A stretch of DNA of 64,000 bases. Source: Dehalococcoidia bacterium. GTDB lineage: Bacteria; Chloroflexota; Dehalococcoidia; SM23-28-2; RBG-16-64-32. The translations under genes and the position numbers were made by a program. Below are positions 21,390 to 52,162 of this stretch, piece after piece (positions within the stretch are counted from its first letter, which is position 1; each line of letters starts with the position of its first letter). The DNA lies in assembly GCA_963665775.2 (NCBI GenBank), contig CAXXTF010000002.1, forward strand, positions 1,429,300 through 1,493,299, read 5' to 3'. Under the pieces are notes generated by a model, which was not told the DNA's origin, did no database searches, and saw only the letters and a list, made by a program, of their open reading frames with translations.

Positions 21390-21408
21390 GCCATCGTGCC
21401 CGGATGGA

Positions 21409-30523: not shown

Positions 30524-32234
30524 CCCGAATCCACCGAAGGACGGCCTTGGGGACAGTCCTTGAAGAAGCCATCGGGTGCTCCTCTGAATCTGGGATAATG
30601 GTTTTGGAACAGAAACCAGCCCGGAAACAAGGAGCACCCAATAGATGCTGCCACAGAACAAACCCGACCGTATCCGCATCCTCTTTGACGACCATCGCCT
30701 GGTGGCCAATGCCGGCCTGCTCCTGCCAGCCACCCTAGCCCGGCACCTGGGCCTGCGGGAACTCGTCGACCATCACCTTGACCTCGGCGGAGCGCCGGGA
30801 CGGGCGAACACTGGGGACAAGATGCTGACGCTGGTCGCTTCCGCGCTGGCAGGCGGCGACTGCATCGACGACGCCGATGCGCTGCGCGCTGGTGGGACGG
30901 TCGGTGTTCTAGGCTGCGTGGTCAAGGCGCCATCCACCCTGGGGACCTTCCTGCGCAGCTTCCGGTGGGGGCATGTCCGTCAACTCGACCGCGTGAGCCG
31001 CCAGTTGTTGGCCCGGGCCTGGGCCGCTGGGGCCGGACCCGGCGACTCGCCCCTGACCATCGACCTGGACTCGACCATCTGCGAGACCTATGGACTGGCC
31101 AAGGAGGGAGCGCGCCACCACGGCTATACCGGCGCCCGCGGCTATCACCCGCTGCTGGCCATTGCCGCCGGCACCGGCGAGGTGCTGATGTCCCGGCTGC
31201 GCGAGGGCCGGGCCAACACCGCCCGTGGCGCCGCCCACTTCCTGCGTGAGACGGTGGGGCGGGTGCGCTACGGCGGGGCCAGGGGACAACTCACGGTGCG
31301 GGCCGACAGCGGCTTCTACGCCCACACTGTCGTTGCCGCCTGCCGGGAAATGGATGTCCGCTTCTCTATCACCATCCGCCAGCGCGCCAGCCTGCGGGAC
31401 CTGATCGAGGCGATACCAGAGGAGGACTGGACTCCCATTCCCTACTGGATGGACGGCGCCGCCGATGTCGCCGAGACGACTTACACCCCGTTCCAGACCA
31501 AGCCGGACGCCGCGCCGGTGCGGCTCATTGTCCGGCGGGTGAAGCCGACGCCCGGTTCCCAGCTCGCCCTCTTCGCCAGATACAGCTATCACGCCTTCAT
31601 CACCGACCGCGATGGGGAGACGCTGGAACTGGAGGCCGATCATCGCCGCCACGCCGAGGTCGAGAACGCCATACGCGACCTCAAGTACGGCGTCGGGCTG
31701 AACCACATGCCGTCGGGGCGCTTCGCCGCCAACGGCGCCTGGCTGGCGGTCCAGGTGATGGCGCATAACCTGGCCCGCTGGACAGCCCGCATCGGCCTGG
31801 GTCAGCAGATCGTGACCACCAAGACCCTCAGGCGGCGGGTCTTCGCTCTCGTGGGACGGATCACCCGCTCGGCGCGCCGCCTCACTTTGCATCTCCCCCG
31901 GCGCTGGCCTTGGGAAACCCAGTTCAGTCGCGCCTTGGCCCGGCTGCAAGCCATTCCATTCCCGGCCTGACGGCCAGCCTGCAACTGACCCAACGTCCCC
32001 GCAATCTCGCGCCACCCCGGTCGCGAGAGTCCCCTGCTGCGTATCCTCTCGCCATCCCGCGCATCGCAACTCCCGCATAGGGCCTTAGGGGCCCTGTGCG
32101 GCGACTGAAGACCGTCCGCCGGCCTCCCATCTACCCCAAGATCCAAGACCCCAGGCCATCTCCCTTGTAGCTCCCTCACCCACCCCCTTCCGCTGTCCTC
32201 ACGCCGTCCATCCGTGTCCTTCGGTGGATTCGGG
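30524..32234 (+). mobile_element. IS1380-family insertion sequence, complete
   Basis: Perfect 19-bp TIR CCCGAATCCACCGAAGGAC; 5-bp direct repeat CTAAG at 30519-30523 and 32235-32239. Confidence 0.93.
30645..31970 (+). CDS. IS1380-family transposase
   Basis: IDLDST, GYHPL, LREGRA, VRADSGFY, ENAIRDLK, AHNL. Confidence 0.95.
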   Translation: MLPQNKPDRIRILFDDHRLVANAGLLLPATLARHLGLRELVDHHLDLGGAPGRANTGDKMLTLVASALAGGDCIDDADALRAGGTVGVLGCVVKAPSTLGTFLRSFRWGHVRQLDRVSRQLLARAWAAGAGPGDSPLTIDLDSTICETYGLAKEGARHHGYTGARGYHPLLAIAAGTGEVLMSRLREGRANTARGAAHFLRETVGRVRYGGARGQLTVRADSGFYAHTVVAACREMDVRFSITIRQRASLRDLIEAIPEEDWTPIPYWMDGAADVAETTYTPFQTKPDAAPVRLIVRRVKPTPGSQLALFARYSYHAFITDRDGETLELEADHRRHAEVENAIRDLKYGVGLNHMPSGRFAANGAWLAVQVMAHNLARWTARIGLGQQIVTTKTLRRRVFALVGRITRSARRLTLHLPRRWPWETQFSRALARLQAIPFPA

Positions 32235-33734: not shown

Positions 33735-35063
33735 TCAATCCGTGATCCGTAGGGGCTCCACCTGTTCCGGCCCCGGCCGGTAGAGCCGGCGCCTTGGCGT
33801 TGGTCGCATCTCGTACATGTTGGTGCGCTCAGCCGCGTTCAGGAGGATCGGCATGAAATCCTCGCCGCGGACCTGGCCGAGCACGCCGCTCGCCGCCACT
33901 CTCTCGCCGAACTCCGCCACCGAGTCCACACGTACGTTCCCGCCGCGGACAGCGATAGGCACGCTCTCGCCGCTGTGCTGGTCGGAGAACTGTCCCCGAG
34001 CCTGACCTGCCCACACGGACGGGGTGGTGTGGTCCGTCGTTAGGACGGTGATGAGATCACGGTGGCCGGCGATCTCCTCCCAGTAGTACCCCATCCCCCT
34101 GTCCAGCGCCTCGATCACCTCGCGGACGCGCTCCGGCTCGTTGTCGTGCGACATCGGGTCAGGATACTTGGAGTGCAGATGGACGAACTCGAACCCCTGC
34201 GCCAGGAGTTCGCGGACCCGCCTCAGCCGCCGCCGCAGGTCGCCCTCGGGGTCCTCGCCCTAGATCTGCTCCAGGTGGAACCCCGCCTCGATCATGAGGC
34301 CGGACACCACCTCTTCGTCGGGAATGCTGGCCGCGCGCATGCCCCAGCGCTCCGCGAACGGCTCGTAGGCGGGCTTCAGGCCGGCCCACTTCGTGATCAG
34401 GCAGTTGATCGGCGGCTCGCCGTCCCGGGAGGCCGAGTGCGAGGCGAGCTGACCGTGGGCCCAGCGGAGGTATCGGTTCAGCGCCTCCGCCGTCCACCCC
34501 GCTAGCTCGGGATCGGTGGCCTCGGCGCGGGGCTTCGCCCGCAGGACGGGGAGGTCCAGACCCAGCGGATCGGTGTCCGTCAGCTGGTAGGAAGCCCCGC
34601 CCTCGATGAACAGGGTACCGTCGCCCCGGCCGCCATAGCTGTAGCGGAACGTCAACCCCTCCACCTCAAGGGTCACGATCGCCTCCGCCAGCGCCTCGCA
34701 CGCCGCCTCCCGCCCCTGGACGAAGCGCTGCACCAGCCGCAGATGGCCGTCCGCCTCCCGCACCGCGGAGGCGAAGCGCGCGGCCAGCACGACGGCCCCA
34801 TCCGGTATCGCCAGCCCTCGCGCCGTTGCAAGCAGCGGCCCGCGGTCCGGGAACTCCTCCTCCGGATAGCCGAACATCAGGTGCAGGGCGAGGGGGCTGC
34901 CCAGCGGATACCCCGGGGACTTAGGGTGGAGCAGGCCGTTGATCCCTTCCGCGGCCAGGCGGTCCAGGTTGGGCGTGCGGGCTGCCTCAAGGGGGGTCTT
35001 GCCGCCCAGTTCCGGGGCTGGACGGTCCGCCAGACCGTCGAAGATTACCAGAAGGATCCGCAC
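33735..35063 (-). pseudogene. apgM: ApgM-like cofactor-independent phosphoglycerate mutase interrupted by one in-frame TAG (34260-34262)
   Basis: DGLADRP..TPNLD, GS, then EQI*GEDP..FVHLHSKYPDPMSHD, TDHTTP, HSGESVP, all in one frame. Confidence 0.8.
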
Positions 35064-38194: not shown

Positions 38195-40792
38195 CTACAC
38201 CTCCTCTAGATCTGATAGCCGGACCCTGGCGACCCTGCGCCCGCGGGCCCGCAGCGCCTGCAGGTCCCCCGCCGACTGGGCGTCCAGAAGCGTCCGAAAC
38301 GTGTACGGCTTCCCGGGGATGGCCAGGTCCAGCGACGGCTCATCGACGACCTGGATGAAGACGCCAGTGGCCGACCCTCCCTTGTGGAGCTGTCCGGTGG
38401 AGTGGAGGAAGCGGGGACCGAAGCCAACGGTGGTCGCCACGCGCAGACGATCGCGCAGCCTTGCCCTGGCTGCCTGAAGTCGGGACGTGTTGTCCGGGGT
38501 GCGCGGCAGGTAGGCCTGGATGGCCAGATAGTCGCCGGGGCGTACCCCCTCCAGGAGCGTCGCCAGGTCGTTATACGGCTCCCTCGGGAGGGCGTCCGCC
38601 TCCAGCAGGTGACGGGTGGCGTCCTTCGCCTCCTGGACGTTGGGCTGATCAAAGGGGTGGATGCCCAGGACGTGGCCGGCCACCGCGGTGGCGAACTCCC
38701 AGCGGAAGAACTCCGCTCCCAGCTTGGCCGCGCCGTCGAAGGGGATCATCACGGAAGGCTCCAAAGCGGTCTCCACGCCAAGGGAGACGAACAGGCGGTC
38801 GCTGCCGTAGACGTCCGGCGGGCCCGGCGGCTCGCCATCCACGGGTACGATGCCCGTGCCTTCCTTGCCGGTCGATTCGGCGATGAGCTGTTCGAGCCAG
38901 GCGCCGAAGGCGGCTACCTCGGCAGGGACCAGGAGGGTCAGCTTGTCCCGCCCTGCCTTTGCGGCCTCGCCCATGAGCGCGCCCAGCCAGAGCCCCGGGT
39001 TGTCCGAGACCGGCGCGCAGTCGGCGCAGGCGCAGGCCATCTCTTCCGCCGAGTCCAGCAGGGCATCAAGGTCTACCCCGATGAGCGCTGCCGGTACCAG
39101 GCCGAAGTAGGAGAGGGCCGAGTAGCGCCCGCCTATATCGGCCGGGTTGAGGAACACGCGTCGGAACCCCTTTGAACGGGCCAGCGCCTCCAGCGGCGTC
39201 CCGGGATCTGTGATGGCGACGAACTGCTTGCCGTCCTTGACCTTGTCGTAGAAGTAGGCGAAATGGGAGAGCGTCTCCACGGTGCCGCCCGATTTGCTGG
39301 CGACGATGAATAACGTGTTGCTGAGGTCACCGTCCGTCTCCACTGCCGCTATCGCCTCTGGATGCGTGGTGTCCAGCGCAGTCAGCGGCTTGCCCCCGAA
39401 GGTCGTCGAGAACACCTCCGGCGCCAGGCTGGAGCCGCCCATCCCCAGGAGGACGATCCGCTCGAATGCTGCACAGCTCTGGGCGAACTCCTGCAGCTGG
39501 TCCATCTGCTCGCGCATCTTCTCCGGTAGCGCTAGCCAGCCCAGGCGGTTGGTAATCTCGGTCGGGTCCGGCTTCCAGACGGTGTGATCCAGCGCCCATA
39601 TGCGCCGGGGCACCCCCGCCTTCTCCATGCTGGAGAGGCGCTTCTCCAGGGGCTTCGCCAGCGCGCCCAGACTGACCCGAGGCTGCCCCTGGGCCGAGAC
39701 GATCCGTTCGCACTTGGCCTCGATCCCGGCCAGCAGCTTCTCGAAGTCCTTCTGAAACGCCGCCAGCCCGTCCTCCAGCAGCTTGGCCAGCACCTCATCC
39801 AATCGCACGCCCAACTCCGGCAGCATACCGATCGTCATCTCAGCCTCTTCCAGGTCCGCCTCCAGCGCCGGCGGCGCCGACCGCAGCTGTCCGTGGTCGG
39901 CGAAGGCGTACAGCGTGCTCTCTGGCATCGTGTTCACGGTATGCGCGCCGATAAGCTCTTCGACGTACAAGACGTCCGAGTAGCCGGGGTTCTTCGTTCC
40001 CGTGGAGGCCCAGAGCGGGCGCTGGAGGCGCCCCCCCACCGCCGCCAGCCGATCCCAGCGCGGGCCGGAGAAGAGCCTGCGGAAGAGGCGGTAGGCCGTC
40101 TTCGCGTTGGCGATTGCGGCCTTGCCCCGCAGCGGCGACTCCTCCGGCAGCAGCGCGTCCACCGCCGTATCCACTCTAGAAACGAAGAAGGACGCCACGC
40201 CGGCGACGTCTTCGATCGACTGACCGGCCTCCAGCCGCCGCTCCAAGCCCGCAATGTAGGCCAGAGCGGCCTGCTCGTACGCCTTCACGTCGAAGAGCAA
40301 GGTAACGTTGACGTTGACGCCCTGCCTTGTCAGCTCCTCGATCGCCGGTGCGCCTTCCGGCGTGCCGGGGACCTTGATCATCACGTTGGGGCGCGCGAGC
40401 TCGCTGAACAGGCTCAGACCCTCCTGGATCGTGCCCTCGGCGTCTCGCGCCAGGTTCGGCGATACCTCAAGGCTGACGAACCCGTCGCCTCCCTTCCTGT
40501 CGTCGTAAACCGGACGCAGAACATCGGCCGTCATCCCGATGTCCTCGACTGCCAGGCGTAGGAAGATCGCCTTCGGGTCGCGCTGGCCGCTTTCCACGAG
40601 CGAGCGGAGGGCGTCATCGTAGTCGGTCGAGCCAGCGATCGCTTTGTTCAAGATGGTGGGGTTCGAGGTTACGCCAGCCACGGCGTACTCGTCGACCAGT
40701 CGCTTCAGGCCACCGGAAGTGATGAGGCCTCTACGGATGTAGTCGAGCCAGGGGCTCTGCCCGAAGTCTCGGAGCCGAAACAATGGGTTCAC
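38195..40792 (-). CDS. Bifunctional transaldolase / glucose-6-phosphate isomerase
   Basis: GQSPWLD, GVTSNPT, MIKVPGT, SFFVSRVD, WASTGTK; GMGGSSL, SKSGGT, GGRYS, FDQPNVQEAK. Confidence 0.95.
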   Translation of the reverse strand: MNPLFRLRDFGQSPWLDYIRRGLITSGGLKRLVDEYAVAGVTSNPTILNKAIAGSTDYDDALRSLVESGQRDPKAIFLRLAVEDIGMTADVLRPVYDDRKGGDGFVSLEVSPNLARDAEGTIQEGLSLFSELARPNVMIKVPGTPEGAPAIEELTRQGVNVNVTLLFDVKAYEQAALAYIAGLERRLEAGQSIEDVAGVASFFVSRVDTAVDALLPEESPLRGKAAIANAKTAYRLFRRLFSGPRWDRLAAVGGRLQRPLWASTGTKNPGYSDVLYVEELIGAHTVNTMPESTLYAFADHGQLRSAPPALEADLEEAEMTIGMLPELGVRLDEVLAKLLEDGLAAFQKDFEKLLAGIEAKCERIVSAQGQPRVSLGALAKPLEKRLSSMEKAGVPRRIWALDHTVWKPDPTEITNRLGWLALPEKMREQMDQLQEFAQSCAAFERIVLLGMGGSSLAPEVFSTTFGGKPLTALDTTHPEAIAAVETDGDLSNTLFIVASKSGGTVETLSHFAYFYDKVKDGKQFVAITDPGTPLEALARSKGFRRVFLNPADIGGRYSALSYFGLVPAALIGVDLDALLDSAEEMACACADCAPVSDNPGLWLGALMGEAAKAGRDKLTLLVPAEVAAFGAWLEQLIAESTGKEGTGIVPVDGEPPGPPDVYGSDRLFVSLGVETALEPSVMIPFDGAAKLGAEFFRWEFATAVAGHVLGIHPFDQPNVQEAKDATRHLLEADALPREPYNDLATLLEGVRPGDYLAIQAYLPRTPDNTSRLQAARARLRDRLRVATTVGFGPRFLHSTGQLHKGGSATGVFIQVVDEPSLDLAIPGKPYTFRTLLDAQSAGDLQALRARGRRVARVRLSDLEEV

Positions 40793-40915: not shown

Positions 40916-41836
40916 CTAGCCCGCCTTACCTTCGCTGCCAAACAGACGGATGCGGGCCTCGACTGCATTCCGTACAACGTCTTCAACATAGCCCATCAGC
41001 TCGTACAGATTGAAGATGTCCGGCTGCTCCGCGAGAACCTGACGCATCCGGCCCAAGGCCGCCAGCCTCAGGTCGGAGTCGGTGTTGATCTTCGCCACGC
41101 CGAGGGAGATGGCTCGCCTGATGAACTCCTCCGGGATGCCTGTGGCCTTCGGCAGCTGGGCGCCGTATCGCTCGGCGAACGCCACCTCCTCCTCACGGAC
41201 CGCAGAGGCGCCGTGGAGGACGATTGGGTTGTCTAGGAGCCCGGCGATTGTGGCCAGCCGGTCGAAATCGAGTCGTGGTTCGCCTTTGAACTTGAAGGCG
41301 CCGTGCGAGGTGCCGATGGTGATGGTAAGCGAATCGACACCCGTCTCGGCTACAAACCGCACGGCCTCCTCGAGCACCGTGAAGGTGGCCGCCGCCGCCA
41401 CCTCGCCCAGGTCCTCGATTCCCGCCAGCTGACCGATCTCGGCTTCCACCTGGACGCTGCGGTCGTGAGCGTACGCCACGATCTCCCGCGTGGCGGCGAT
41501 GTTCTCCTCTAGCGGCAGCCGCGACGTGTCGATCATCACCGAGGTGTATCCGGCCTCCACCGCGGCCCTCGCCACTTCGATGCTCTTGCCGTGGTCCATG
41601 TGAAGGGCGACGGGGACCGGGGCCTCCTCGGCGAGGCGGCGGACGATTGAGGCGATGTTGCCGAAACCGGCATGCTTGACGGCACCCTCCGACGTCTGAA
41701 TCATAACCGGCGCCCGTAGGTTCGTCGCCGCATCGACGACGGCCCGAGCGGACTCCAGGTTGTAGACGTTGAACCCCCCAACCGCCCAGCCGTTCGCGCG
41801 ACCCGCTCTCAGATACTCCAGCGGGTTAACCAGCAT
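40916..41836 (-). CDS. fba: Class II fructose-bisphosphate aldolase
   Basis: FNVYN, LHMDHG, SVMID, VEAEIG, GTSHGAFK, VLHGAS, KINTDSD. Confidence 0.95.
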   Translation of the reverse strand: MLVNPLEYLRAGRANGWAVGGFNVYNLESARAVVDAATNLRAPVMIQTSEGAVKHAGFGNIASIVRRLAEEAPVPVALHMDHGKSIEVARAAVEAGYTSVMIDTSRLPLEENIAATREIVAYAHDRSVQVEAEIGQLAGIEDLGEVAAAATFTVLEEAVRFVAETGVDSLTITIGTSHGAFKFKGEPRLDFDRLATIAGLLDNPIVLHGASAVREEEVAFAERYGAQLPKATGIPEEFIRRAISLGVAKINTDSDLRLAALGRMRQVLAEQPDIFNLYELMGYVEDVVRNAVEARIRLFGSEGKAG

Positions 41837-41962
41837 CAGAGGGCTCCCCCTTGTTCGCAGGTAAGTCTCGCAGTTGCTCCTCTGGCGGCTCCTTACCCCC
41901 GTGTACCTTTCGCTCGTGTTCCTTGATCACTCGCCCTGAAGATAAGCTTATGTGGAGGCATG

Positions 41963-41994
41963 AGCATAAGGTGTCAATATTACCGTGTCAATAT
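41963..41994 (-). promoter_or_regulatory. Sigma-70-type promoter of the fba operon with an overlapping direct repeat
   Basis: TTGACA-N17-TATGCT on the minus strand; GTGTCAATAT repeated at 41971 and 41985. Confidence 0.7.
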
Positions 41995-42025
41995 GTTCGA
42001 TGAAGAATGGAGTGAGCGGTCAAGC

Positions 42026-42724
42026 CTAGGCGGGGGAACGCAGTCTGCTTATCAAGGTTTGGAACTCGCAGCGGGCGCAGAACTCGTAGGCCTCCACGAG
42101 GACGAAGAGGATCACGCCGCCCCAGAGATAGGCCGCCAGCACGTCGCTCGGCCAATGCGCGCCAGTGTATACCCGCTGGAGGCCCATCAGAGCGATCACC
42201 GCTAGGCTGGACCATCGCACCCATCGCCGTATCCGAGGACTGGCGATGAGCCACTCAGAGGCGAAGTAGACGAATCCCCACAGCAGAACCGCGCCCAACA
42301 CATGGCCGCTGGGAAAGGAGAACCCACCCGCCTGCTCCGTGACCTCCACCTGGAATGGCGAGGGCCGTGGCCTCTCCACCAGCTCCTTCAGCAGGAATGC
42401 CGAACCGCGGGCGATCACGGCTAGGACCATAAACAACGCCATCAGCCGTTGCCTTCGCAACGTCATGAGGGCCACTATCGCTAGTGCGATGAGCTGGAAC
42501 ACGGGTGAGAGCCCGATACGATAGACGAATTCGCTAAGCAGGTCCAGGCCGGGGAGGCGCACGTCCTGGACTGCTCGTGCCAGGGTTACGTCCCCCGGAG
42601 GGTAGGCGCCGAAGAAAGCGAGCGCCGTCAGGGCGATGGCAGCGATAAATGCCGCAAGCCACAGTCCCCACTGTCTGGGGCCAGGGGCTAGCATGGTCTG
42701 CTTCCACTTAGCAGTCATAGTCAT
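42026..42724 (-). CDS. PAP2-family membrane phosphatase
   Basis: K-x4-RPRP, SFPSGH, RVYTGAHWPSD; catalytic motifs intact. Confidence 0.92.
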   Translation of the reverse strand: MTMTAKWKQTMLAPGPRQWGLWLAAFIAAIALTALAFFGAYPPGDVTLARAVQDVRLPGLDLLSEFVYRIGLSPVFQLIALAIVALMTLRRQRLMALFMVLAVIARGSAFLLKELVERPRPSPFQVEVTEQAGGFSFPSGHVLGAVLLWGFVYFASEWLIASPRIRRWVRWSSLAVIALMGLQRVYTGAHWPSDVLAAYLWGGVILFVLVEAYEFCARCEFQTLISRLRSPA

Positions 42725-42774
42725 AGCATACCACCAGGAGAAGGCTCAACTATGTGCCTTCTACCAGGTATACG

Positions 42775-44094
42775 CTAGGGCTCGCTTGGCAGACCTCCGA
42801 CCACGGTCGGCTCGGAAACGGCTGGAAGCTCCTTCCACACTTCCCGAAGCTTCACCAGGTAGGCTGTCAGCAGGAACGCCGCTCCGATAACGTCGGTGGC
42901 GACATCAACCCCCTCCGGCGCTATCCCTTCGGACGCGAAGAAATCGGCCAGCCGCGAGATGATCAAGAATCCGATGCCTATCGCCAGGAGCGGGAATGTG
43001 GCTCGCGATCGCATGAGTTCGCCAAGGAAGATGGCGACCGCTGTGAGGCCCACAACCCCGTACCCGAGGAGAATCAGGTCATCCAGGCCGACCAGGGGCA
43101 CAGCGACGCCGAGGCCGTTCTCGACCGCGTCTCCCACCCGCCCGCGTATGCCGAAGTAGTCGTCGCCTCCTAGCCAAACGAGCCCGGCGCCGGAGAGGAT
43201 CCAGAAGAAGCTGCCCGGCGCATCCACCCGCTGTCCCGCCTGCGGCAGCCGCCAGAAGCGGGTGTAGATGTAGTACCCTGCCACTCCGGCCAGCAGCAAC
43301 TCGGCAGCCCTCAGGGCCTGCATCGGTCCATACGCTCCGAAGGTCTCCGATAGCTTACCCGCAAGGACACCCGCGATGGCGGCGACGACCAGAGCCACCG
43401 CGATCGCCGCCAGGATGCTCAGGACCAGAGTCCGGTGCGAGCGCAGCCTCACCGCCGAGTCCCTCACCCAAGCGAGGAGATGGTGCGGCCGCAGGGAGTG
43501 CCAACGACTCTTGACCATCCTGGGCGCTACGCCGGGACCGGAGCAGGCCAGCCAGCAGGTCAGCACCGCCAGGTGCTGGCGCCGGTACAGCCTAAACGGC
43601 AGCCTTCGAAACCCCTGATCGAGCAGAACAGCCAGCAAGGGGCGGTTCCTACGTAGGGGCTCGGCCAGGAGGTAGGCGAAGCTACCTAAGAACGGTACCA
43701 GCGACGCCGCGGCGACCGTCAGCGTGTGGATCTTTCGCGCCCCGCGGAGCCGCTCGTCGGATCCCCGCCTGATCAGCGCCCTCGCCTCTGCCGTCAGCCG
43801 GAAGAACACCGTCCATCCAAACCGAGCGACATTCTCTAAGGGGGTGAACAGGACTAATGTAATAGCGATATGCGCCCCAAGGTGCCCCAACGCAGCCATG
43901 GTCTCAGGTGTCTCCAGGCCACTTGTGGCTTTCTCCGCTTCCTCCCGGTCCAGGCTGCCCTCGTCTACCAGTCGCTGGACTGCCCTGCGAGCCCAGTCGC
44001 GGGTCAGTCCACCTCCGGCTCGCGCCTGACGAAAGGTGCCTCGTATCGCCCCGATCAGAGCCGGGGGCCATAGCAGGCGCAGCGGCCTAGGCAC
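42775..44094 (-). CDS. Uncharacterised membrane protein; N-half homologous to the C-terminus of 47717-49699
   Basis: HLGAH..ARFGWT..IHT..LVP..LLDQ..LPFRLY versus HLGVH..ARFLWT..IHT..LVP..VLDQ..LPFKIY; extra multi-TM C-half. Confidence 0.7.
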   Translation of the reverse strand: MPRPLRLLWPPALIGAIRGTFRQARAGGGLTRDWARRAVQRLVDEGSLDREEAEKATSGLETPETMAALGHLGAHIAITLVLFTPLENVARFGWTVFFRLTAEARALIRRGSDERLRGARKIHTLTVAAASLVPFLGSFAYLLAEPLRRNRPLLAVLLDQGFRRLPFRLYRRQHLAVLTCWLACSGPGVAPRMVKSRWHSLRPHHLLAWVRDSAVRLRSHRTLVLSILAAIAVALVVAAIAGVLAGKLSETFGAYGPMQALRAAELLLAGVAGYYIYTRFWRLPQAGQRVDAPGSFFWILSGAGLVWLGGDDYFGIRGRVGDAVENGLGVAVPLVGLDDLILLGYGVVGLTAVAIFLGELMRSRATFPLLAIGIGFLIISRLADFFASEGIAPEGVDVATDVIGAAFLLTAYLVKLREVWKELPAVSEPTVVGGLPSEP

Positions 44095-44884
44095 GACGCA
44101 GGGGCTTGAGCAAGACGGAGCCGACCTTCAGGACAAGCTGTAGCAGCCTGCCCCAGATCCGCAGCTCAGACTTCTGCCACTCCTCGGCGCAATGCTGATA
44201 CTCGTCTGTAGCATGCTGAAGTTCTCGAAGCCCCTCCGGTCCCAGGGCCGCTTCGATCTCGTCACCGTGCTTCTCGATATACTTGCGAGTCTTAGCGACG
44301 AACACGTCGTCGAACACCGGAATCAACCCCGCCTTGATGGCGTCGATCCATTGACCGATCGGCATCATCGGGTTGACCACGCCTGATTCCAGATCGATGA
44401 TCTTGTAGCTTCCGTCCGGCGTCTCGATCAGGTTCCCGGTCGCCTTGGGGTTCCAGGGAAGGACCTGCCAGGTAGGCAGCCCTACCTCCTGAAAGAGAGG
44501 TGTGAGCTTCCGCAGGAACGCCCGCGCCCGCTTCTTGTCCTTTGGCACCTCCCCTTCGATGAGTTGGGTCACGAAAATGCAACCCTTCTCATCGCAGCGT
44601 ATATCGAGAGTCGGAGCCACGTGGTCGGTGCCGAACCAGAACTTCGTCATCAGGCTGGCGATGGTCCGGCGCGCTTTGGCCGCTTGTAGAGAGGGCTCGT
44701 TCCGAACGTAGGGGAAAGGGGCCTGGAACGCCAGCCAGTAAAGGAGCTTAACCAGGAGAGGAGGCCGGTAAATCTTGGTTGCGGTGGCGTGTTCCCGGTC
44801 TAGAAGGACGCGGCTGGCCAGGCCGCCGGATACATCGGAGTGGGCTTCGTGGTCATCTGGATCCCTCGCTTGATCTGGGAACAT
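44087..44884 (-). CDS. Atypical protein-kinase-like domain protein
   Basis: GGLASRV..TATKIY, FVTQLIEG, GNLI..KIIDLES; homologous to the middle of 47717-49699; GGGAGG RBS before ATG 44884. Confidence 0.65.
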   Translation of the reverse strand: MFPDQARDPDDHEAHSDVSGGLASRVLLDREHATATKIYRPPLLVKLLYWLAFQAPFPYVRNEPSLQAAKARRTIASLMTKFWFGTDHVAPTLDIRCDEKGCIFVTQLIEGEVPKDKKRARAFLRKLTPLFQEVGLPTWQVLPWNPKATGNLIETPDGSYKIIDLESGVVNPMMPIGQWIDAIKAGLIPVFDDVFVAKTRKYIEKHGDEIEAALGPEGLRELQHATDEYQHCAEEWQKSELRIWGRLLQLVLKVGSVLLKPLRRA

Positions 44885-45198
44885 GGAGTCCTCCCGTCGG
44901 CGTCTCGGTTTCGACATTATACACCCGCGTACTCGGCGCGACGGCACCCGATTCTGGAAGCTCCATCGGCTGCATCGCGAAGGCTGGTCGGGTCAGTAAC
45001 TTGACGCCCCCTTCCGGCAGATGGATAATCCTCTTCGCCATCACCAGCCCAGATGGCGCCCAGCGCAATGGAGCAATCCCGCGATCCCTCTTTCGCCGTG
45101 GTTGTGCCATCCATACCGGTCGGTTGTGCATCATTTCGTGGCTGAACGCAGGAGCCGCTCAGGAACTTATCACATTAGTTAGGTGTGAGGCATAGGCT

Positions 45199-45486
45199 AT
45201 GGCCGAGCCGATCATTCTTACGGTCGATGACGAGCCGCAAGTCAGGAACGTGGTCGCCCGTAGCGACCACGGGCGCGAGCTGGAAACTTGGTTGGAGGAG
45301 CGCGGGATGGTAGACGCCTGGAAACTCGCGCCTGCGCTGGTGAATCTGAATTACGATACCGCCGGGCTGACAGCGCTGGCCGACAGCATCGCTCCCGACC
45401 AACTCCCCGCCGTGATTGGCGGGCTGGACACGACTTACGCGGTATACAGCGTACTCACAGAGATCGGTCAGAGCGCGGGACCCTGA
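45199..45486 (+). pseudogene. Deletion chimera: receiver-domain N-terminus joined to an internal histidine-kinase segment
   Basis: MAEPIILTVDDEPQVRNVVAR then SDHGRELETWLEERG..AWKLAPALV..EIGQSAG. Confidence 0.6.
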
Positions 45487-45569
45487 CGATCGAGTAGGCA
45501 CCTGTGATGGTGGGTGACGCAGGGCCCATGGACGTCGCTGATTGAAGGAGACAATAGGCGAGGAATGCG

Positions 45570-47456
45570 ATGATGGAAGAGGGAAAGGGTGACAAGCCTC
45601 GCCGCCGGCTCCCGTGGTGGCTGATCGTTGGCTTTGTAGCCCTCGTTCTGCTGGTATTCGTTCCCTTGATCGGCGGCGGGGACGATAAGAAGACCGAGGA
45701 GGTGTCTTTGCTGGCTTTCGCCAAGGCGGTGGAGGAAGCTGGGGAGACCGACCGCATCGTCGTGAAGGGCGATAAGCTCACTCTGGAGCGGGAAGATGGC
45801 ACCAAAGTAGTTAAGACCCGGAAGGAAGAAGGTATCAGCGCCATCGAGACGCTCCAGCGCTTGGGGGTCTCCGATGAGGCCCTGCAAAGAGTCGAGATTG
45901 AGGTCGAGAAGAAAGGCGCGAGCATAGGCTCCATCCTGCTCACTCTTGCTCCTCTCCTCTTCCTCGTCGTCATCGGGTTCGTAATCTTCCGGCAGTTCCG
46001 CGGCGGCGCCGGCGGCGGGATATTCGGCTTCGGCCGCAGCAAGCCCCGGGTCACTGGGGTCGACGGTCAGCGTCCGAAAACTACATTCGCCGACATCGCT
46101 GGCGTAGAGACGGCCAAGCTTGAGCTGCACGAGGTCGTTGAGTTCCTCGGCTCTCCTGAGAGGTTCACCCGCCTGGGCGCCCACGTTCCTAAGGGCGTGC
46201 TGCTGGTGGGTCCGCCGGGCACGGGCAAGACGCTGCTGGCCAGGGCGATTGCCGGCGAGGCCGGCGTGCCCTTTTTCAGCATCTCCGCCTCCGAGTTCGT
46301 GGAGATGTTCGTGGGAACGGGGGCCTCCCGGGTGCGGGACCTATTCGAGAAGGCGAAAGCGGCGGCGCCCTCCATAATCTTCATCGACGAGATCGACGCC
46401 GTGGGTCGGCGGCGGGGCGTCGGCCTGGGCGGCGGCAACGACGAGCGGGAGCAGACGCTGAACCAGATCCTGGTGGAGATGGACGGGTTTGAGACCGGCA
46501 CAAACGTGATCGTCATCGCCGCCACCAACCGCGCCGACGTGCTGGACGCCGCCCTCCTGCAGCCCGGACGGTTCGACCGCCGGATAGAGGTGGACCGCCC
46601 TGACGCTGAGGGCCGGGAGGCGATCCTACGGGTGCACGCGCAGGGTAAGCCGCTGGCCCCAGAGGTCAAGCTGGCGGACATCGCCAAGCTCACGTCAGGC
46701 TTCACGGGCGCCGACCTGGAGAACCTGATGAACGAGGCGGCGATCCTCGCCGCCCGCAAAGGCGAGCTCGCGATCGGTTCCACCGCGCTGAACGAGGCGT
46801 TCGAGCGGATCATCGCCGGGCCGGAGCGGAGCAAGAAGCTCCTCAGCCCGGAGGAGCGCCGCGTGGTCGCGTACCACGAGGCGGGCCATGCCGTGGCCAT
46901 GGAGTCCATGCCCAACGCCGATCCCGTGCACAAGATCAGCATCGTCTCCCGCGGGCCGGCTTTGGGCTACACGATGCCGCTGCCGGAGCGGGACAGGGTG
47001 CTGCGCTCAAAGGAAGCGATGGAAGACGAGATCGCCGGCCTTATGGGGGGGCGGGCCGCCGAGGAGCTACTGCATTGCAGCGTGACCACGGGTGCCGCCA
47101 ACGACCTGCAACCGGCCACGGCGCTGGCCCAGGCCATGGTCACGCAGTACGGGATGAGCCCTGAGATGGGCCTGCGCATCTTCGGCAACGGCGAGCAGTC
47201 ACCCCCCGGCTGGCCACAGCAGCAGCGCGAGTACGCCGAAGGCACGGCCCTCAGGATCGATACCGAGATCAACGGCATCCTGGACCGCGCCCATACCAGA
47301 ACGAGGACGATTCTAAAGGAACGCTGGGGTACAGTCTCTCGGATGGCCGCCGCCCTGCTGGAGCAGGAGACGCTGGAACGGCGGGACATCGAGAGACTTC
47401 TCGCCGAGAGCGTCGAGGGTACCGAAGTCTACTGCGAAGAGGAGACCGAGGCTTAG
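45570..47456 (+). CDS. ftsH: ATP-dependent zinc metalloprotease FtsH
   Basis: Two TM segments, [48 protein letters not shown]. Confidence 0.96.
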
Positions 47457-47716
47457 ACGGCAGGGGCTTGGCTGTAGTCCGTCGCACCCCTTTTCGTGAG
47501 CCTTGATGTGAATGTGGTCTGCGGTCTCCCCCACTGTGGCACCGTCGTCCCCTCGGCGGACGATCACCGGCACTGTCCAGCCAAAAGCTAAGTCCGTGCG
47601 CGCACCGGACACCGGATCATAGCATCTATGCGCTCGCGTCTACACAATGTTGACTATTGTCTGGGAGCGAGTGATACTTTCGGCCATAGGAAGAGGCAGT
47701 AATTCCAGGCCAGAGA

Positions 47717-49699
47717 ATGTCTACGCCAACACGCACCGACCTGAAGGGCATGGTGACCCTATCGGGCCTTTTTAAGGGGCCGTGGGGGATTATCTGGTTG
47801 ACTGCGGCGGGCGTGCTGACGGCCCTATTGATTCTCCTTAGCATAGCCGTCAACGAGGGCCGAACTGCTTCCCAGGACCAGGATGTCCTGGAATGGGTGG
47901 TCGGCTGGGACGCCCCTGGCCTGGCCGGTCTCGCAGACGTTATCAACTTTCTCGCTAGTACCTGGTCAGGGACCGCGATAGTGGCAGCGGGAATAGCAGT
48001 CATCTGGCTTCTTACGGTGGGTCGGGTTGCCTTCGGGCTTGCCATCGTCGGCATGGTTCTGGTCGTGGTCGCCTTCTGGGGCGATCGAATCCTGGCGGAG
48101 ATCGTAGGGCGATCTGGGCCTCTCGCGGAGGGATCGCAGAGCTTCCCTAGTGGGCGCCTATTTGGCAGCACGGTGTTCTTTGGATTCTTGGGATTCCTCG
48201 CTGTTTACTACCGGCTAAACAGGGTACTTCTTATCCCTCTGTTAGGCATTCTTCTCGCCTTGATCGTGGCTGCTGGCTTTGCTCGCATCTTTAAGGAAGC
48301 CGCATGGCCAAGCGATGTAGCAGCCGGATACCTACTCGGAGGCGTCTGGCTCCTACTGCTTATCCCACTGTTTATCTCCTTTCAGAGGTTTTCCTGGCTG
48401 TCCTCCCCGAAGCAAGCGCCAGACCTGACTACATTGGGATGTGAAACTTGTCGTATTGAAAGGTCTATCGCAAGCACGGTAGTGCTGGACCCCGAGCGAG
48501 GTACGGCGACCAAGGTATATCGGCCACCGGGATTGGTGCGCCTGCTTTACTGGGCAGCCTTCCAGGCCAAGTTTCCCTATGAGAACAACCGAGCCTCTCT
48601 GGATGCGGCGACGTACCGCAGGAAGATCGCGAGTGCCCTAACCACCCACAGATTCGGGAAGGACCTCGTCGCCCACGTGACCGCCGTAGAGTGCGAATTC
48701 GAGGCATGCAGCTTCGTCACCGAGTTTGTTGCAGGCGAAAAGGTCGAGAACGATGAGGAGACACAGCAATTCCTCGGTCAGGTCGCGGAGACGTTCGCCG
48801 AGGCAGGCCTGTCCGTTTGGCAAGTGAACCCACGGAATCCTCACGCCCACACAAACCTCATCCGGACGCCCGAAGGGGACAGCAAGATTATAGATCTGGA
48901 GTCTGCCGTAGTCACACCGATTCCCGCACCCGGGCAATGGCGGTCCTCGCTCAGGCGGGGAAGCCTCCCGATATTCGATGACATCGACTTCCAGCGATTG
49001 CGAGGCTACATCTCCTCCAATGAGACAGCACTACAAGAGAGCCTTGGGCCGGAAAGCTTGGCCGGGTTCAAGGCCAACGTGGATCGTGGCGAGCAGGCGA
49101 TTCACGCCTGGCAAGATTCTGAGCCCCGAATCTGGGGGCGGCTTATCAGCGGGGCGTACCGGTTACTGGACTGGCCGGGCTTCGCCAAGCGCTTGAAGCA
49201 TACGTTGGGTGGCGCCGACCGGGCCGCTGAGGCCTTCTTGAATCGTGGCATCGAGCGTTGGGAGATCGAAGGCCGGCTGCCGCCCTCGGAGGCGGCATGG
49301 CTGCGGTCCCAACTTTCGTCGGGCGAGGTCCAAAACGCGACGCACCACCTGGGAGTCCACCTGGTCTTAAGTGTAGCGATAGCTATTCCTATTCCAGGAC
49401 TTAGAAGCCTCGCTCGCTTCTTGTGGACGTTCACTTTCTGGCTCAAGTCCCAGGCTAGGCGCCTTCTGCGTCGCGCCCCGAAGCCGGCTCAAGGGGCCTC
49501 CAACATCCACACCCCCCTGGTCATGCTGATCGCCCTGGTGCCTGCTGTCGGAGGCGTTTCTTATCTTGCCTCTCGCCCGCTCCGTAAGAAGCTTCTAATT
49601 CGCTTGGTGCTGGACCAGATCGCCATTAAGCTGCCCTTCAAGATCTACACTCGCCTGAACCTGGGTCGGAGGCTGGCCCCTGCACGTACCGACCGCTAG
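47717..49699 (+). CDS. Fusion of a degenerate PAP2 domain, a kinase-like domain and a C-terminal membrane-associated domain
   Basis: SFPSGR and RIFKEAAWPSD (both His lost); TATKVY, FVTEFVAG, TNLI..KIIDLES. Confidence 0.75.
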   Translation: MSTPTRTDLKGMVTLSGLFKGPWGIIWLTAAGVLTALLILLSIAVNEGRTASQDQDVLEWVVGWDAPGLAGLADVINFLASTWSGTAIVAAGIAVIWLLTVGRVAFGLAIVGMVLVVVAFWGDRILAEIVGRSGPLAEGSQSFPSGRLFGSTVFFGFLGFLAVYYRLNRVLLIPLLGILLALIVAAGFARIFKEAAWPSDVAAGYLLGGVWLLLLIPLFISFQRFSWLSSPKQAPDLTTLGCETCRIERSIASTVVLDPERGTATKVYRPPGLVRLLYWAAFQAKFPYENNRASLDAATYRRKIASALTTHRFGKDLVAHVTAVECEFEACSFVTEFVAGEKVENDEETQQFLGQVAETFAEAGLSVWQVNPRNPHAHTNLIRTPEGDSKIIDLESAVVTPIPAPGQWRSSLRRGSLPIFDDIDFQRLRGYISSNETALQESLGPESLAGFKANVDRGEQAIHAWQDSEPRIWGRLISGAYRLLDWPGFAKRLKHTLGGADRAAEAFLNRGIERWEIEGRLPPSEAAWLRSQLSSGEVQNATHHLGVHLVLSVAIAIPIPGLRSLARFLWTFTFWLKSQARRLLRRAPKPAQGASNIHTPLVMLIALVPAVGGVSYLASRPLRKKLLIRLVLDQIAIKLPFKIYTRLNLGRRLAPARTDR

Positions 49700-49773
49700 C
49701 ATCTGTTAGCCATGACATTCTCAATAGCGCCTAGTCCCCAACGAAAACTGAATCTAGCTTAGAGGAACGAGCG

Positions 49774-51264
49774 ATGCAGAAGGACTGGATGTTAGAACTG
49801 GCCCGTAAGTATGAAGAGACTCGTCGTCGATATCCGAAGGACAAATTGATGGCCGTCTTCGACATCGACGGTACGATTCTAGATACCCGTTATATGATCC
49901 TCCACGTACTGCAGGACTTCGATAAGGAACATGGGACCCACCTCTTCCAGAAGCTCAATGTCTCGGATATCAGGACACACGAAAACCAAGTGGACCTTCT
50001 TCTGGCCGAGCTACAAATTCCGAATCAGAAGCAAGAAGAGATTCTAGACTGGTACAACCTTCAACGTTGGACACCGGAGCAAATCCTTCACGCTCATAAT
50101 CCGTTTTCTGGAGTACTTGAGGTTATTCGATGGTTTCAAATTCAGCCCGAGACGTTTATCGGCTTGAACACTGGACGACCGGAATCACTGCGAAGAGATA
50201 CGTTGAGATCCCTGAATGCGCTGGGGAAGGAGTATAAGGTCCGGTTCTCAGACGCGCTCCTCCAGATGAATCCTCGTGGCTGGGAACAGGAGGTGGATAA
50301 CGCAAAAGTTGCCGGGATACGCTACTTTCAGGCGGCTGGCTATCGAGTCTTCGCCTTTATAGATAACGAACCTGATAATTTACAGGCAGTCTCAAGAATC
50401 GATCCGGCGCAAGAGATCCTTCTTCTACATGCCGACACGATATTTGAATCCAAGAGAACCAGCCTTCCCGCTCATATGGTCAAAGGAAAGACCTATGATC
50501 TGACGGAACTTATCCCTGAGAAAGCCCTACCCAAGCACATTGAATTTGTTTGGCATGGCGTAAACGACGAGGTCAACCTACGTCAGTTTCTGGCCTCGGA
50601 CATCAGTTGGGGCGAATTTGATGTTCGGCTCGACCCTATAGGGAGCGAACTGATTCTGCGTCATGACTCCTTTGTAGACAGTCCACTTGACGCAGACGAG
50701 GATTGGCTGACCTTGGATCGACTCTTAGAGCGATTTCAACAGGCAGGCAAGTCCGCGAAGTTTGACTTGAAAGCCGGGGGTAAGGTGCTGGACAAAGTCT
50801 TGGAATTAGGGGCAAGGTATGACTTTTCCGAGACGCACTTGTGGTTCAACGGCAACGTCGAAAAACTGCAGGAAGAGGGTTTCAGAAGATTGGCCGACGC
50901 GCATCCGAAGGCCGTACTGCAATGCCCGGTGGATTTCTTAGCCCCTCTGATATGTCGCACTCCGAAGAAAGCTGGGGTGATCCTCAAATCGTTCACGGCA
51001 TGGGGCGTAAACCGCTTCTCTATTTCCTGGGAGAGCCCGGACATGCGCACCTTTCTTGACCAAATGGAAGATTGGGGGTTCGAGGTTAACATCTACAAGG
51101 TTCCTGACTTGAATTCATTTCTGGAAGCTGTACTGCTAATGCCTCGCTCGATCACCGCTGATTTCAATTTCCCCCAATGGCATTACTACGGAAGAGGCTC
51201 CGGGCAGGATAGTGAAAAGTACGAGTACTCCGTGCGGAAGAGGCGAACGAGAAGGCAGGCCTGA
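49774..51264 (+). CDS. HAD-family hydrolase fused to a GDPD/PLC-like domain
   Basis: VFDIDGT, NTGR, K, FIDNE (HAD motifs I-IV); WHGVN..EFDVR..LRHD..KFDLK. Confidence 0.7.
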   Translation: MQKDWMLELARKYEETRRRYPKDKLMAVFDIDGTILDTRYMILHVLQDFDKEHGTHLFQKLNVSDIRTHENQVDLLLAELQIPNQKQEEILDWYNLQRWTPEQILHAHNPFSGVLEVIRWFQIQPETFIGLNTGRPESLRRDTLRSLNALGKEYKVRFSDALLQMNPRGWEQEVDNAKVAGIRYFQAAGYRVFAFIDNEPDNLQAVSRIDPAQEILLLHADTIFESKRTSLPAHMVKGKTYDLTELIPEKALPKHIEFVWHGVNDEVNLRQFLASDISWGEFDVRLDPIGSELILRHDSFVDSPLDADEDWLTLDRLLERFQQAGKSAKFDLKAGGKVLDKVLELGARYDFSETHLWFNGNVEKLQEEGFRRLADAHPKAVLQCPVDFLAPLICRTPKKAGVILKSFTAWGVNRFSISWESPDMRTFLDQMEDWGFEVNIYKVPDLNSFLEAVLLMPRSITADFNFPQWHYYGRGSGQDSEKYEYSVRKRRTRRQA

Positions 51265-51353
51265 CCAGTAACCTCCAACCGCGTATCGCGATCCCGGCAT
51301 AGCGCCGCCAATGGTTGTGACCACCGAAGCTGGCAAGGGTAGCCGGCACGAGG

Positions 51354-52103
51354 ATGAAAATGTCGGCAGGCATTTCAAAATCGAATCGTACGCTTGGTCT
51401 CCTGCGGGATGCCTTCCGCCTCGCTGTAGCCCCCAGCCGGCGCAATCTGCTGCACTGGCTTTCCTGGACGGTTACGCTGGCGACACTGCTGAGCCTCACC
51501 GTTATTCTCTACGGCGGCCAGATCTACGGCTGGGAGCAGGACGTCACCCGGGAGTTTCAGGCCTGGGACTACCCGGAGTGGGCGTTCCGGATAACCTCCT
51601 CCAACCTGATCGATCCCATGGCCTGGCAAGGGGGATCGATCAGGGCCTCCGCCTTCCTCGCACTCCTTCTTCTGGGGCATCGGGTGGAGGCCGCCCTGGT
51701 GGTCCTGATCTTCCCGCTGCACATCCTGGGAAACTTCCCCAAGGCGATCGTCGACAGGGAGCGGCCTTCGGAGATGTTCGACGGCATCTTCGGTGTGGGC
51801 GGCGATATGAGCTTCCCGAGCGGTCACACAGAGTCTGCCGTCACATTCTTCGGATTCCTCACCTTCGTGGCCCTAACTCACCTCAGCGGCCGTGTCCGGC
51901 GCACTGGCATCGTGCTTCTCTGGCTTGGCTTCGCGATCCTGGTGGGTTACGGGCGCATCGCTCACGGCCACCACTGGCCGGTGGACGTCCTCGCCTCTTA
52001 CGTCGTTGGCACCGGGCTACTCTCGGGTTTGATCTGGCTCCATACGAGCCTCTCTGGAGCGCGGGAGCTAAGAGCAACCTCAGACGCAGGTGCCCGCCAT
52101 TGA
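51354..52103 (+). CDS. PAP2-family membrane phosphatase
   Basis: KAIVDRERP, SFPSGH, RIAHGHHWPVD. Confidence 0.9.
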   Translation: MKMSAGISKSNRTLGLLRDAFRLAVAPSRRNLLHWLSWTVTLATLLSLTVILYGGQIYGWEQDVTREFQAWDYPEWAFRITSSNLIDPMAWQGGSIRASAFLALLLLGHRVEAALVVLIFPLHILGNFPKAIVDRERPSEMFDGIFGVGGDMSFPSGHTESAVTFFGFLTFVALTHLSGRVRRTGIVLLWLGFAILVGYGRIAHGHHWPVDVLASYVVGTGLLSGLIWLHTSLSGARELRATSDAGARH

Positions 52104-52162
52104 CGTAGGCGCGGGCAAACTCCTAGAATGCGCGCAAACGCCTACCGAAGAAGGAGTATTTA

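Follow-up and report, generated by a model that had tools for sequence, protein, structure and literature searches.

Here we describe a rare family of membrane proteins, seen only in records of Chloroflexota lineage, in which a domain of kinase-like fold is followed by a conserved membrane hairpin and is mostly fused to a PAP2 phosphatase domain. Two anciently diverged copies of it lie at 42026..52103 of the window, by which we mean the whole 64,000-nucleotide stretch of contig CAXXTF010000002.1 that was analysed (assembly GCA_963665775.2, Dehalococcoidia bacterium, positions 1,429,300 to 1,493,299 of the forward strand). One copy is a single fused protein, D, and the other is split over the genes C, B and A, which are translationally or operonically coupled. 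A first-pass annotation, made from the sequence alone, had proposed that the locus might be an undescribed membrane phospho-switch made up of PAP2 phosphatases, kinase-like proteins, the protease FtsH and a HAD-GDPD fusion. The locus as a whole is no system; its core, the family of the kinase-like domain and hairpin, is real, conserved and unexplained.

The two divergent arms described at first pass were recovered with all seven of their open reading frames (ORFs). The features that bear on the family are listed below, where KIN stands for the kinase-like domain, TMH for the two-helix membrane hairpin and Bct for an extra C-terminal membrane domain found in B.

C, 44087-44947, minus strand: soluble stand-alone kinase-like protein of predicted protein-kinase-like (PKL) fold, 286 aa; alternative ATG at 44884
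B, 42775-44094, minus strand: membrane partner of C, 439 aa; TMH (about residues 36-175), then Bct of about 240 aa
A, 42026-42724, minus strand: stand-alone PAP2 lipid-phosphate phosphatase (PF01569), 232 aa, motifs intact
D, 47717-49699, plus strand: PAP2/kinase-like/TMH fusion, 660 aa
D residues 1-240, 47717-48436, plus strand: PAP2-fold membrane domain, catalytic residues lost
D residues 245-485, 48449-49171, plus strand: kinase-like domain, predicted cytoplasmic
D residues 486-660, 49172-49699, plus strand: conserved two-helix membrane hairpin (TMH)
F, 51354-52103, plus strand: second stand-alone PAP2, 249 aa, intact

A rare family of kinase-like membrane proteins

That the same three modules occur once split and once fused was already proposed at first pass, and pairwise comparison bears it out. 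C aligns with residues 251-478 of D at 46% identity over 228 aa (E 1e-67), residues 36-175 of B align with residues 509-649 of D at 38% identity (E 3e-21), and A aligns with residues 92-203 of D at 31% identity (E 6e-7), so that by sequence comparison the paralogy of the split and fused modules lies far beyond chance. The two stand-alone phosphatases, A and F, are 39% identical to each other (E 1e-14). In a FastTree phylogeny of 78 KIN domains, C and D fall in separate and well-supported subclades (the supports are 99 for an 8-row KIN..Bct subclade and 98 for a 15-row PAP2-KIN subclade), and they are therefore old paralogues and not the product of a recent duplication. The reading frames of C and B overlap by 8 nt, and in three relatives (L011, L013 and L015) C and B form a single ORF, which argues that the two proteins associate.

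A hydropathy scan finds no transmembrane (TM) segment in C and about seven hydrophobic segments in B. In D, five hydrophobic segments above threshold in the PAP2 part are followed by a soluble stretch of about 320 aa and then by the two TM helices of the hairpin, at residues 544-562 and 597-615. Across 45 aligned fusions the hairpin has the invariant residues W515, P558, R567, H598, Y616, D633 and P640 (here and below in the numbering of D), and no Pfam model matched it in our scans. Bct has no counterpart in D. Neither B as a whole nor Bct has a Pfam match, and for Bct there was also no named family among the ESM Atlas clusters and no similarity to a PplT-like protein encoded in a related locus, L050, to which we return below.

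How far the family extends was judged from a scan of one genome per species over 185,579 species, which returned 79 loci, all of them from metagenome-assembled genomes whose record titles place them in the Chloroflexota lineage, bar one unclassified "bacterium". The content of each locus was scored by BLAST with the window's own domains; some contigs are truncated, and the counts of absence that the following figures imply are upper bounds.

KIN: 79 of 79 loci
TMH: 72 of 79
KIN and TMH in one ORF: 58 of 79
PAP2 anywhere in the locus: 57 of 79
KIN and PAP2 in one ORF: 48 of 79
Triple fusion PAP2-KIN-TMH: 41 of 79
Stand-alone PAP2: 18 of 79
Bct: 11 of 79
Full-length FtsH: 3 of 79
HAD-GDPD gene: 3 of 79

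The usual order of the fusion is PAP2-KIN-TMH, and a permuted order, KIN-TMH-Bct-PAP2, occurs in L022 and P0282. This natural "Rosetta stone", in which PAP2 has been fused in two independent orders, speaks strongly for a joint action of PAP2 and KIN, and it argues for a direct functional coupling of an outer-leaflet lipid phosphatase with a cytoplasmic nucleotide-binding domain. Of the recurring PAP2/HAD/FtsH linkage that the first-pass annotation envisaged, the PAP2 part stands in the form of these single-ORF fusions with KIN, and the HAD and FtsH parts, at three loci each, do not. An exhaustive profile search gave 427 clusters (50% identity) at E up to 1e-3, 337 at 1e-10 and 127 at 1e-30. 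The family is nevertheless rare, being present in 6 of 61 relatives and in 2 of 301 genomes sampled across the phylum, with the window's own genome counted in both.

Phosphoesterases of other families also recur beside KIN-TMH. In 12 of the 79 loci (L019, L021, L039, L043, L058, L060, L063, L073, L076, L077, L085 and L086) a membrane-anchored PhoD-like phosphatase (DUF7670 + PhoD) lies directly downstream, the stop codon of one gene and the start codon of the next often overlapping. The closest relatives of C, 93-95% identical and found in L009 and L012, have a PHP-family phosphoesterase at the position of the PAP2 gene A (L009:10197-10919 and L012:10186-10857). When the ORFs of the 79 loci were clustered, only generic families came up besides PhoD (ABC ATPase, SDR, luciferase-like, acyl-CoA dehydrogenase and MFS), and the remaining same-strand neighbours are heterogeneous. 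Two single cases may be recorded beside these. In L038 a DedA/VTT gene (L038:3414-4040) lies downstream of the fusion, and in L050, which is among the nearest relatives of D at about 60% identity, a GT-C (PMT_2) glycosyltransferase and an LPG_synthase_TM (PplT-like) gene lie directly upstream of KIN (L050:463-4201).

The kinase-like and PAP2 domains

No sequence model that was tried assigns KIN to a kinase family. C has no Pfam match, and its single NCBIfam row is a chance-level one for L-pipecolate oxidase (E 0.034); for D, Pfam and NCBIfam give PAP2 alone and nothing on the kinase-like domain. Searches of the PDB sequences with the kinase-like domain, by phmmer and by profile (A1), returned chance matches only and no kinase. 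A Pfam scan of 57 alignment members found no kinase family (Pkinase, RIO1, ABC1/UbiB, APH and Kdo included) at E up to 1, the ABC1, RIO1 and APH models searched over the genome left C and D untouched at E up to 10, and among 20 divergent or long representatives one C-terminal PAP2 was the sole match above a Pfam cut-off.

Structure prediction points to a kinase-like fold. The AlphaFold2 model of C, built on the 57-sequence alignment, has a pLDDT of 93.8 and a pTM of 0.90, and its top Foldseek matches in the PDB are RIO2, PknB, Ark1, OspG and CurKC, the kinase domain of a lanthipeptide synthetase (E about 1e-3, TM-score 0.3-0.38, with a Foldseek probability of 0.96-1.0 for RIO2, PknB and Ark1). 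VIA-align against 48,161 representative chains ranked Bud32 and ULK4 (both Z 8.2) and the ABC1-like Rv3197 (8.1) highest, followed by RIOK3 (7.8), APH (7.6), YihE (7.3) and Rio2 (7.3); the best 50 rows are nearly all of kinase fold, with AsbB as one exception. The nearest named clusters in the ESM Atlas are likewise kinase families (YrbL-PhoP_reg, Phage_T7_kinase and Kinase-PolyVal), which we take as leads only. It is the uniformity of the structural match list, rather than the height of any score, that underlies the assignment of the fold. On the model, then, the domain is predicted to have a bilobal, PKL-type fold, in agreement with the kinase-like domain proposed at first pass. By this likeness KIN would be a PKL-type nucleotide-binding domain, one that no named kinase family tested claims as a member by sequence model.

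The residue pattern was surveyed over 115 aligned family sequences, among them a divergent subfamily that came from the exhaustive profile search. Near-universal among them are K266, Q283, R302, G364, W368, Q369, N380, D393, E395, S396, P418, D421, W465 and E469. The β3 Lys (K266), the catalytic-loop Asn (N380) and the metal Asp at the DFG position (D393), which were assigned by their position relative to predicted strands, are thus kept, with D-x-E in place of DFG as part of a D-x-E-S metal motif (D393, E395, S396). In the model of C the Lys lies on the second strand of the N-lobe, N133 comes directly before strand 134-136 and D146 directly after strand 142-144, which is the arrangement of a catalytic-loop Asn and a DFG Asp. 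The 13 residues that separate N380 from D393 presumably equal the spacing of N171 and D184 in PKA, and the I-D-x-E motif of KIN resembles what we take to be the ID-x-E of choline/APH-type kinases.

The PAP2 domains are easier to place. As proposed at first pass, each arm holds an intact one. A scores 63.5 bits on PF01569 (cut-off 27.2) and has the KX6RP, PSGH and RX5HX3D motifs, and F scores 59.6 bits in the genome search and has PSGH and HHWPVD (H-x3-D). The PAP2 domain of D keeps its fold match (30.6 bits on PF01569 against the same cut-off of 27.2) and lacks the motif-1 Arg and both catalytic His, with GP for RP, PSGR for PSGH and AAWPSD for AHWPSD; judged by these motifs it is a catalytically dead pseudo-phosphatase. 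In NCBIfam, A and F come closest to models of undecaprenyl-diphosphatase and PgpB, with scores that all lie far under the equivalog cut-offs, and three of the four PAP2 domains of the genome sit in this locus. The three PAP2 motifs are common to A, F, the 41 of 51 fused domains of fusion-type ORFs that keep the catalytic His, Arg and Asp, and known phosphatases such as PgpB, BcrC, YbjG, LpxE and SepP; the known enzymes are, however, not known to be fused to a kinase fold, and D, whose copy is dead, belongs to the degenerate minority. Compensation of a dead fused PAP2 by an adjoining stand-alone one was considered and rejected: such a neighbour accompanies 3 of the 10 degenerate domains and 7 of the 41 intact ones, which is too weak a difference, and the loci are related.

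An extracytoplasmic-facing membrane domain followed by a cytoplasmic kinase fold resembles the build of receptor kinases, and one might accordingly read D as a receptor-like protein kinase whose dead PAP2 fold senses an envelope lipid phosphate while KIN phosphorylates a protein substrate or itself. With four in five fused PAP2 domains catalytically intact, no HRD Asp, no match of the Pkinase model to any of the 57 alignment members and no recurrent response partner among the neighbours, we hold this to be highly improbable.

Possible activity at the two faces of the membrane

PAP2 enzymes have their active site on the outer face of the membrane and their two termini on the inner one, a topology that would place KIN in the cytoplasm, where nucleotides are. 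The reading that we favour, tentatively and at slightly less than an even chance, is that of a two-sided lipid-phosphate enzyme, in which an atypical, ATP-using KIN would act on, or hand over, the lipid pool that PAP2 dephosphorylates outside. KIN would bind ATP or another nucleotide through the β3 Lys, the catalytic-loop Asn and the D-x-E motif, and its substrate would be a phospholipid or a polyprenyl phosphate, on which it would work as an atypical ATPase or transferase. Within the hairpin, the invariant Arg, His, Asp and Tyr might hold the head-group of that lipid at the inner leaflet, beside the KIN cleft. The step at the inner leaflet would be coupled to the dephosphorylation, at the outer leaflet, of lipid from the same pool, for instance in the turnover of polyprenyl diphosphate and polyprenyl phosphate or of phosphatidic acid and phosphatidylglycerophosphate. 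Should the substrate indeed be a polyprenyl or phospholipid phosphate, the family would offer a new route for keeping carrier lipids or phospholipids in balance, in a phylum whose envelopes are unusual.

Several observations weigh against this two-sided enzyme. The first concerns its chemistry: the position of the HRD Asp (375, five before the Asn) is never Asp in the 115 sequences (Pro in 85, Leu in 11, Ser in 6, Met in 4 and Ile in 3), and its absence throughout the family makes classical phosphotransfer doubtful. Furthermore, the αC-like helix has no conserved Glu and carries an invariant Arg (R302) instead. Scores for the fold lie in a middle range (Z of about 8, Foldseek TM-score 0.3-0.38 and E of about 1e-3), and the Pfam, PDB-sequence and genome model searches tied the domain to no kinase family at the level of sequence. 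We infer the topology from hydropathy and the general arrangement of PAP2 enzymes, and the lipid substrate is a guess, for which the hints are single cases (the DedA gene of L038, and the GT-C and PplT-like genes of L050). PAP2 was not found in 22 of the 79 loci, some of those contigs being truncated, and 10 of the 51 fused PAP2 domains are degenerate, with a stand-alone PAP2 nearby in only three of those ten; since dead fused PAP2 domains mostly lack such a neighbour, KIN-TMH can evidently persist without PAP2 catalysis. Of the lipid phosphorylation/dephosphorylation cycle of the first-pass annotation, the phosphorylation step is not supported, as the canonical catalytic Asp is absent across the whole family.

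Nucleotide and metal ligands that are kept while the base is lost suggest either an atypical ATP-binding enzyme or a pseudokinase, and the second of these is the main rival, possible and yet on the unlikely side. KIN would then be non-catalytic; it would bind a nucleotide or metabolite and use the hairpin to switch an outward-facing phosphoesterase on or off according to energy or phosphate state, which is inside-out regulation without lipid chemistry. It would account for the missing Asp, for a partner phosphoesterase that varies from PAP2 to PhoD to PHP, and for the retention of KIN-TMH where the fused PAP2 is dead. The same dead domains also speak against it, since 7 of the 10 loci concerned show no other PAP2 that KIN could regulate. 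Moreover, invariant polar residues extend beyond the nucleotide pocket (Q283, Q369, S396, D421 and E469, and R567, H598 and D633 in the hairpin), a pattern that one would sooner expect of an enzyme at work or of a site made for a particular substrate. A family in which the catalytic Asp has been replaced throughout while the nucleotide and metal ligands remain is a test case for kinase folds that are not kinases.

Several known proteins share parts of this architecture. KIN has the bilobal minimal kinase fold, the β3 Lys and the catalytic-loop Asn in common with Bud32, RIO1/RIO2 and the APH/choline-kinase-like proteins (YihE/SrkA); it differs from them in having no Pfam kinase match, no HRD Asp and an Arg for the αC Glu, and in being tethered to the membrane by a conserved hairpin and fused to PAP2. 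UbiB/COQ8 proteins (ABC1) offer a second likeness to KIN-TMH, as they too consist of a kinase-like domain followed by C-terminal TM helices and work on membrane isoprenoid lipids, and one of the best structural matches to KIN is the ABC1-like Rv3197. UbiB, however, keeps the catalytic Asp, has a KxGQ motif and is not known to be fused to PAP2, and the ABC1 Pfam model misses both C and D. One may nevertheless imagine KIN-TMH as an ATP-driven, UbiB-like lipid-handling module that together with the exofacial PAP2 makes a self-contained carrier-lipid recycler across the bilayer, although we regard this as unlikely. PAP2 would dephosphorylate polyprenyl diphosphate, or another lipid phosphate, outside, while the KIN ATPase and the hairpin would capture, flip or re-activate the product inside; the whole would be a Chloroflexota-specific alternative to the division of labour between BacA/PAP2 and DedA/DUF368.

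Two further comparisons come from preprints. In Segetibacter, the "PAP2-PIK-like" module SEAE1 is described as a putative lipid kinase of PKL fold linked to a PAP2 gene (bioRxiv 10.64898/2026.09.18.752743). In that protein, according to the same account, the usual Lys-Glu pair gives way to one formed by an Arg of the αC-like helix and the acidic residue two places beyond the metal Asp, and the family is large, with 7,867 homologues, mainly in Bacteroidota (10.64898/2026.09.18.752743). By analogy, R302 and E395 of KIN could pair in the same way. SEAE1 as there described differs from the present family in that the PAP2 link is one of neighbourhood only, in 4 of 20 genomes and not co-transcribed, and in that it has a catalytic Asp, D216. 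A kinase fold joined to a membrane lipid-handling domain is also reported for fusions of a kinase with PplT, an MprF-type translocase, in Actinobacteria (bioRxiv 10.1101/2022.03.11.483950). L050, with its PplT-like gene directly upstream of KIN, recalls these fusions; measured against the published description, the membrane module here is different, namely a two-TM hairpin with or without an unrelated Bct, and B is unlike the PplT-like protein of L050. The first-pass annotation did not recognise the locus as a named system, and none was found: in the literature retrieved, neither a PAP2-kinase-fold fusion of this type nor a HAD-GDPD fusion is described, and the SEAE1 preprint alone surfaced.

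FtsH, the HAD-GDPD gene and the surroundings of the locus

The remaining features of the locus lie between the two copies of the family and downstream of D.

C-FtsH divergent intergenic region, 44948-45569, no strand
FtsH paralogue (AAA + M41 protease; TIGR01241), 45570-47456, plus strand
E, 49774-51264, plus strand: 496-aa soluble protein, HAD phosphatase and GDPD-fold (Menorin-like) phosphodiesterase

Both genes are what they were first taken to be. The FtsH scores 740 bits on TIGR01241, against a cut-off of 600, with AAA, AAA_lid_3 and Peptidase_M41 all present, and a second FtsH, 53% identical, is encoded elsewhere in the genome. The N-terminal half of E matches HAD_2 (PF13419, 25.6 bits against a cut-off of 23.8), and some of its homologues match PF03767. 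The AlphaFold2 model of E has a pLDDT of 88.8 and gives the C-terminal half the TIM-barrel fold of a glycerophosphodiester phosphodiesterase (GDPD); the top Foldseek matches are GDPDs (E 7e-9 to 1e-6, target-normalised TM-score 0.55-0.69), in line with the HAD and GDPD-like halves noted at first pass. Menorin (PF10223) matches the homologues P0209 and P0219 with 28 bits against a cut-off of 25, whereas the scan of the E in the window listed no such match at E up to 0.01. Among 49 sequences of the E family, D30, D32 and G33 (the DxDGT motif), E281, D283 and H297 are invariant and H261 is kept in at least 90%; the last four of these residues match what we take to be the GDPD catalytic pattern, His...E-x-D...H-D. 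E has no TM segment. Its family numbers at least 1,536 matches, the best 120 of which are 58-99% identical and carry source names from many phyla, including Aminicenantes, Planctomycetota, Bacteroidota, Gammaproteobacteria and cyanobacteria. From its sequence it looks like a horizontally spread, uncharacterised enzyme that may turn a phosphodiester into phosphate in two steps.

E was probably acquired horizontally. Its GC content at third codon positions (GC3) is 0.58, against 0.68-0.84 in its neighbours, and it was not found in the 300 other Chloroflexota genomes sampled. A neighbourhood scan in metagenomes, limited to 11 loci by a single-sequence query, placed 46-49% identical homologues beside a pyridine-nucleotide-disulfide oxidoreductase in five loci, and not beside PAP2. 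Only close relatives (L010, L011, L013 and probably L097) have E next to KIN or PAP2 genes, as would suit a gene that was gained recently and then passed down in a single lineage.

These observations decide the standing of the locus as one system. That both arms, FtsH, the HAD-GDPD gene and the PAP2 genes together form a single phospho-switch or envelope-stress system with a dedicated protease is suggested by the tight, divergent packing of the genes, by the presence of E beside KIN/PAP2 genes in differing orders in L010, L011 and L013, and by FtsH adjoining C in L009. FtsH and E are each found in three of the 79 loci, however, and E in none of the other Chloroflexota genomes sampled, from which it follows that the 10-kb locus is not one system. 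Adjacency of FtsH and KIN is limited to a few loci, the codon usage of E is foreign, its more distant homologues adjoin an oxidoreductase, and the closest relatives of D (L071, L050 and L054) have neither FtsH nor E nearby. A single-system reading is accordingly the least probable of all those weighed here. FtsH and the HAD-GDPD gene are lineage-specific neighbours and not conserved partners, and in annotation they should not be read as system parts; the co-located protease of the first-pass annotation drops out with them, and nothing points to the envelope-stress circuit that it had suggested.

The recurrence of phosphoesterases around KIN-TMH (PAP2, PhoD, PHP and HAD-GDPD) would also suit a cassette for phosphate scavenging or membrane remodelling, in which exofacial PAP2 or PhoD and the cytoplasmic HAD-GDPD protein free phosphate from lipids and glycerophosphodiesters and KIN-TMH is an accessory. 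The scanned parts of the window, about 20-64 kb, yielded no genes of a pst or pho regulon, however, E is a recent arrival, and the fusion of a kinase fold would be left unexplained, so that we consider such a cassette improbable.

The gene order itself is genuine and no artefact of assembly, as public contigs cover all three genes of the left arm and, on the right arm, everything from the 3' part of FtsH onwards: in each of four runs from four studies, one contig covers 46460-52600 and another 41800-45052, with 0-16 differences. An ORF at 51311-52108 that overlaps F was rejected as a shadow frame and is not a gene. The C-FtsH intergenic region has a promoter-like site on the plus strand at 45001-45029, and in the promoter and terminator scan the site counts were no higher than in shuffles. 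Within the same region, public contigs of two runs carry two alleles of 45033-45154 that differ at four positions, and those of two other runs lack one nucleotide at 45559, which lies 11 nt before the start of FtsH.

The locus is flanked by ordinary central metabolism, namely class II fructose-bisphosphate aldolase, a transaldolase/phosphoglucose-isomerase fusion, 6-phosphogluconate dehydrogenase and glyoxalase. The fusion, of 865 aa at 38195-40792, adjoins the aldolase and the dehydrogenase genes in a compact pentose-phosphate/glycolysis block. At 33735-35063 a cofactor-independent phosphoglycerate-mutase-like gene is present as two ORFs, with the C-terminal part of Metalloenzyme at 33735-34154 and PhosphMutase with the N-terminal part of Metalloenzyme at 34260-35063, which may be due to a frameshift or a split gene. 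Farther out, at 20403-25097, 30645-31970 and 62941-63768, are remnants of mobile elements, whose genes include a phage-type integrase, a terminase fragment, a ParB-like protein, a D12 methyltransferase, a DDE transposase and an rve integrase.

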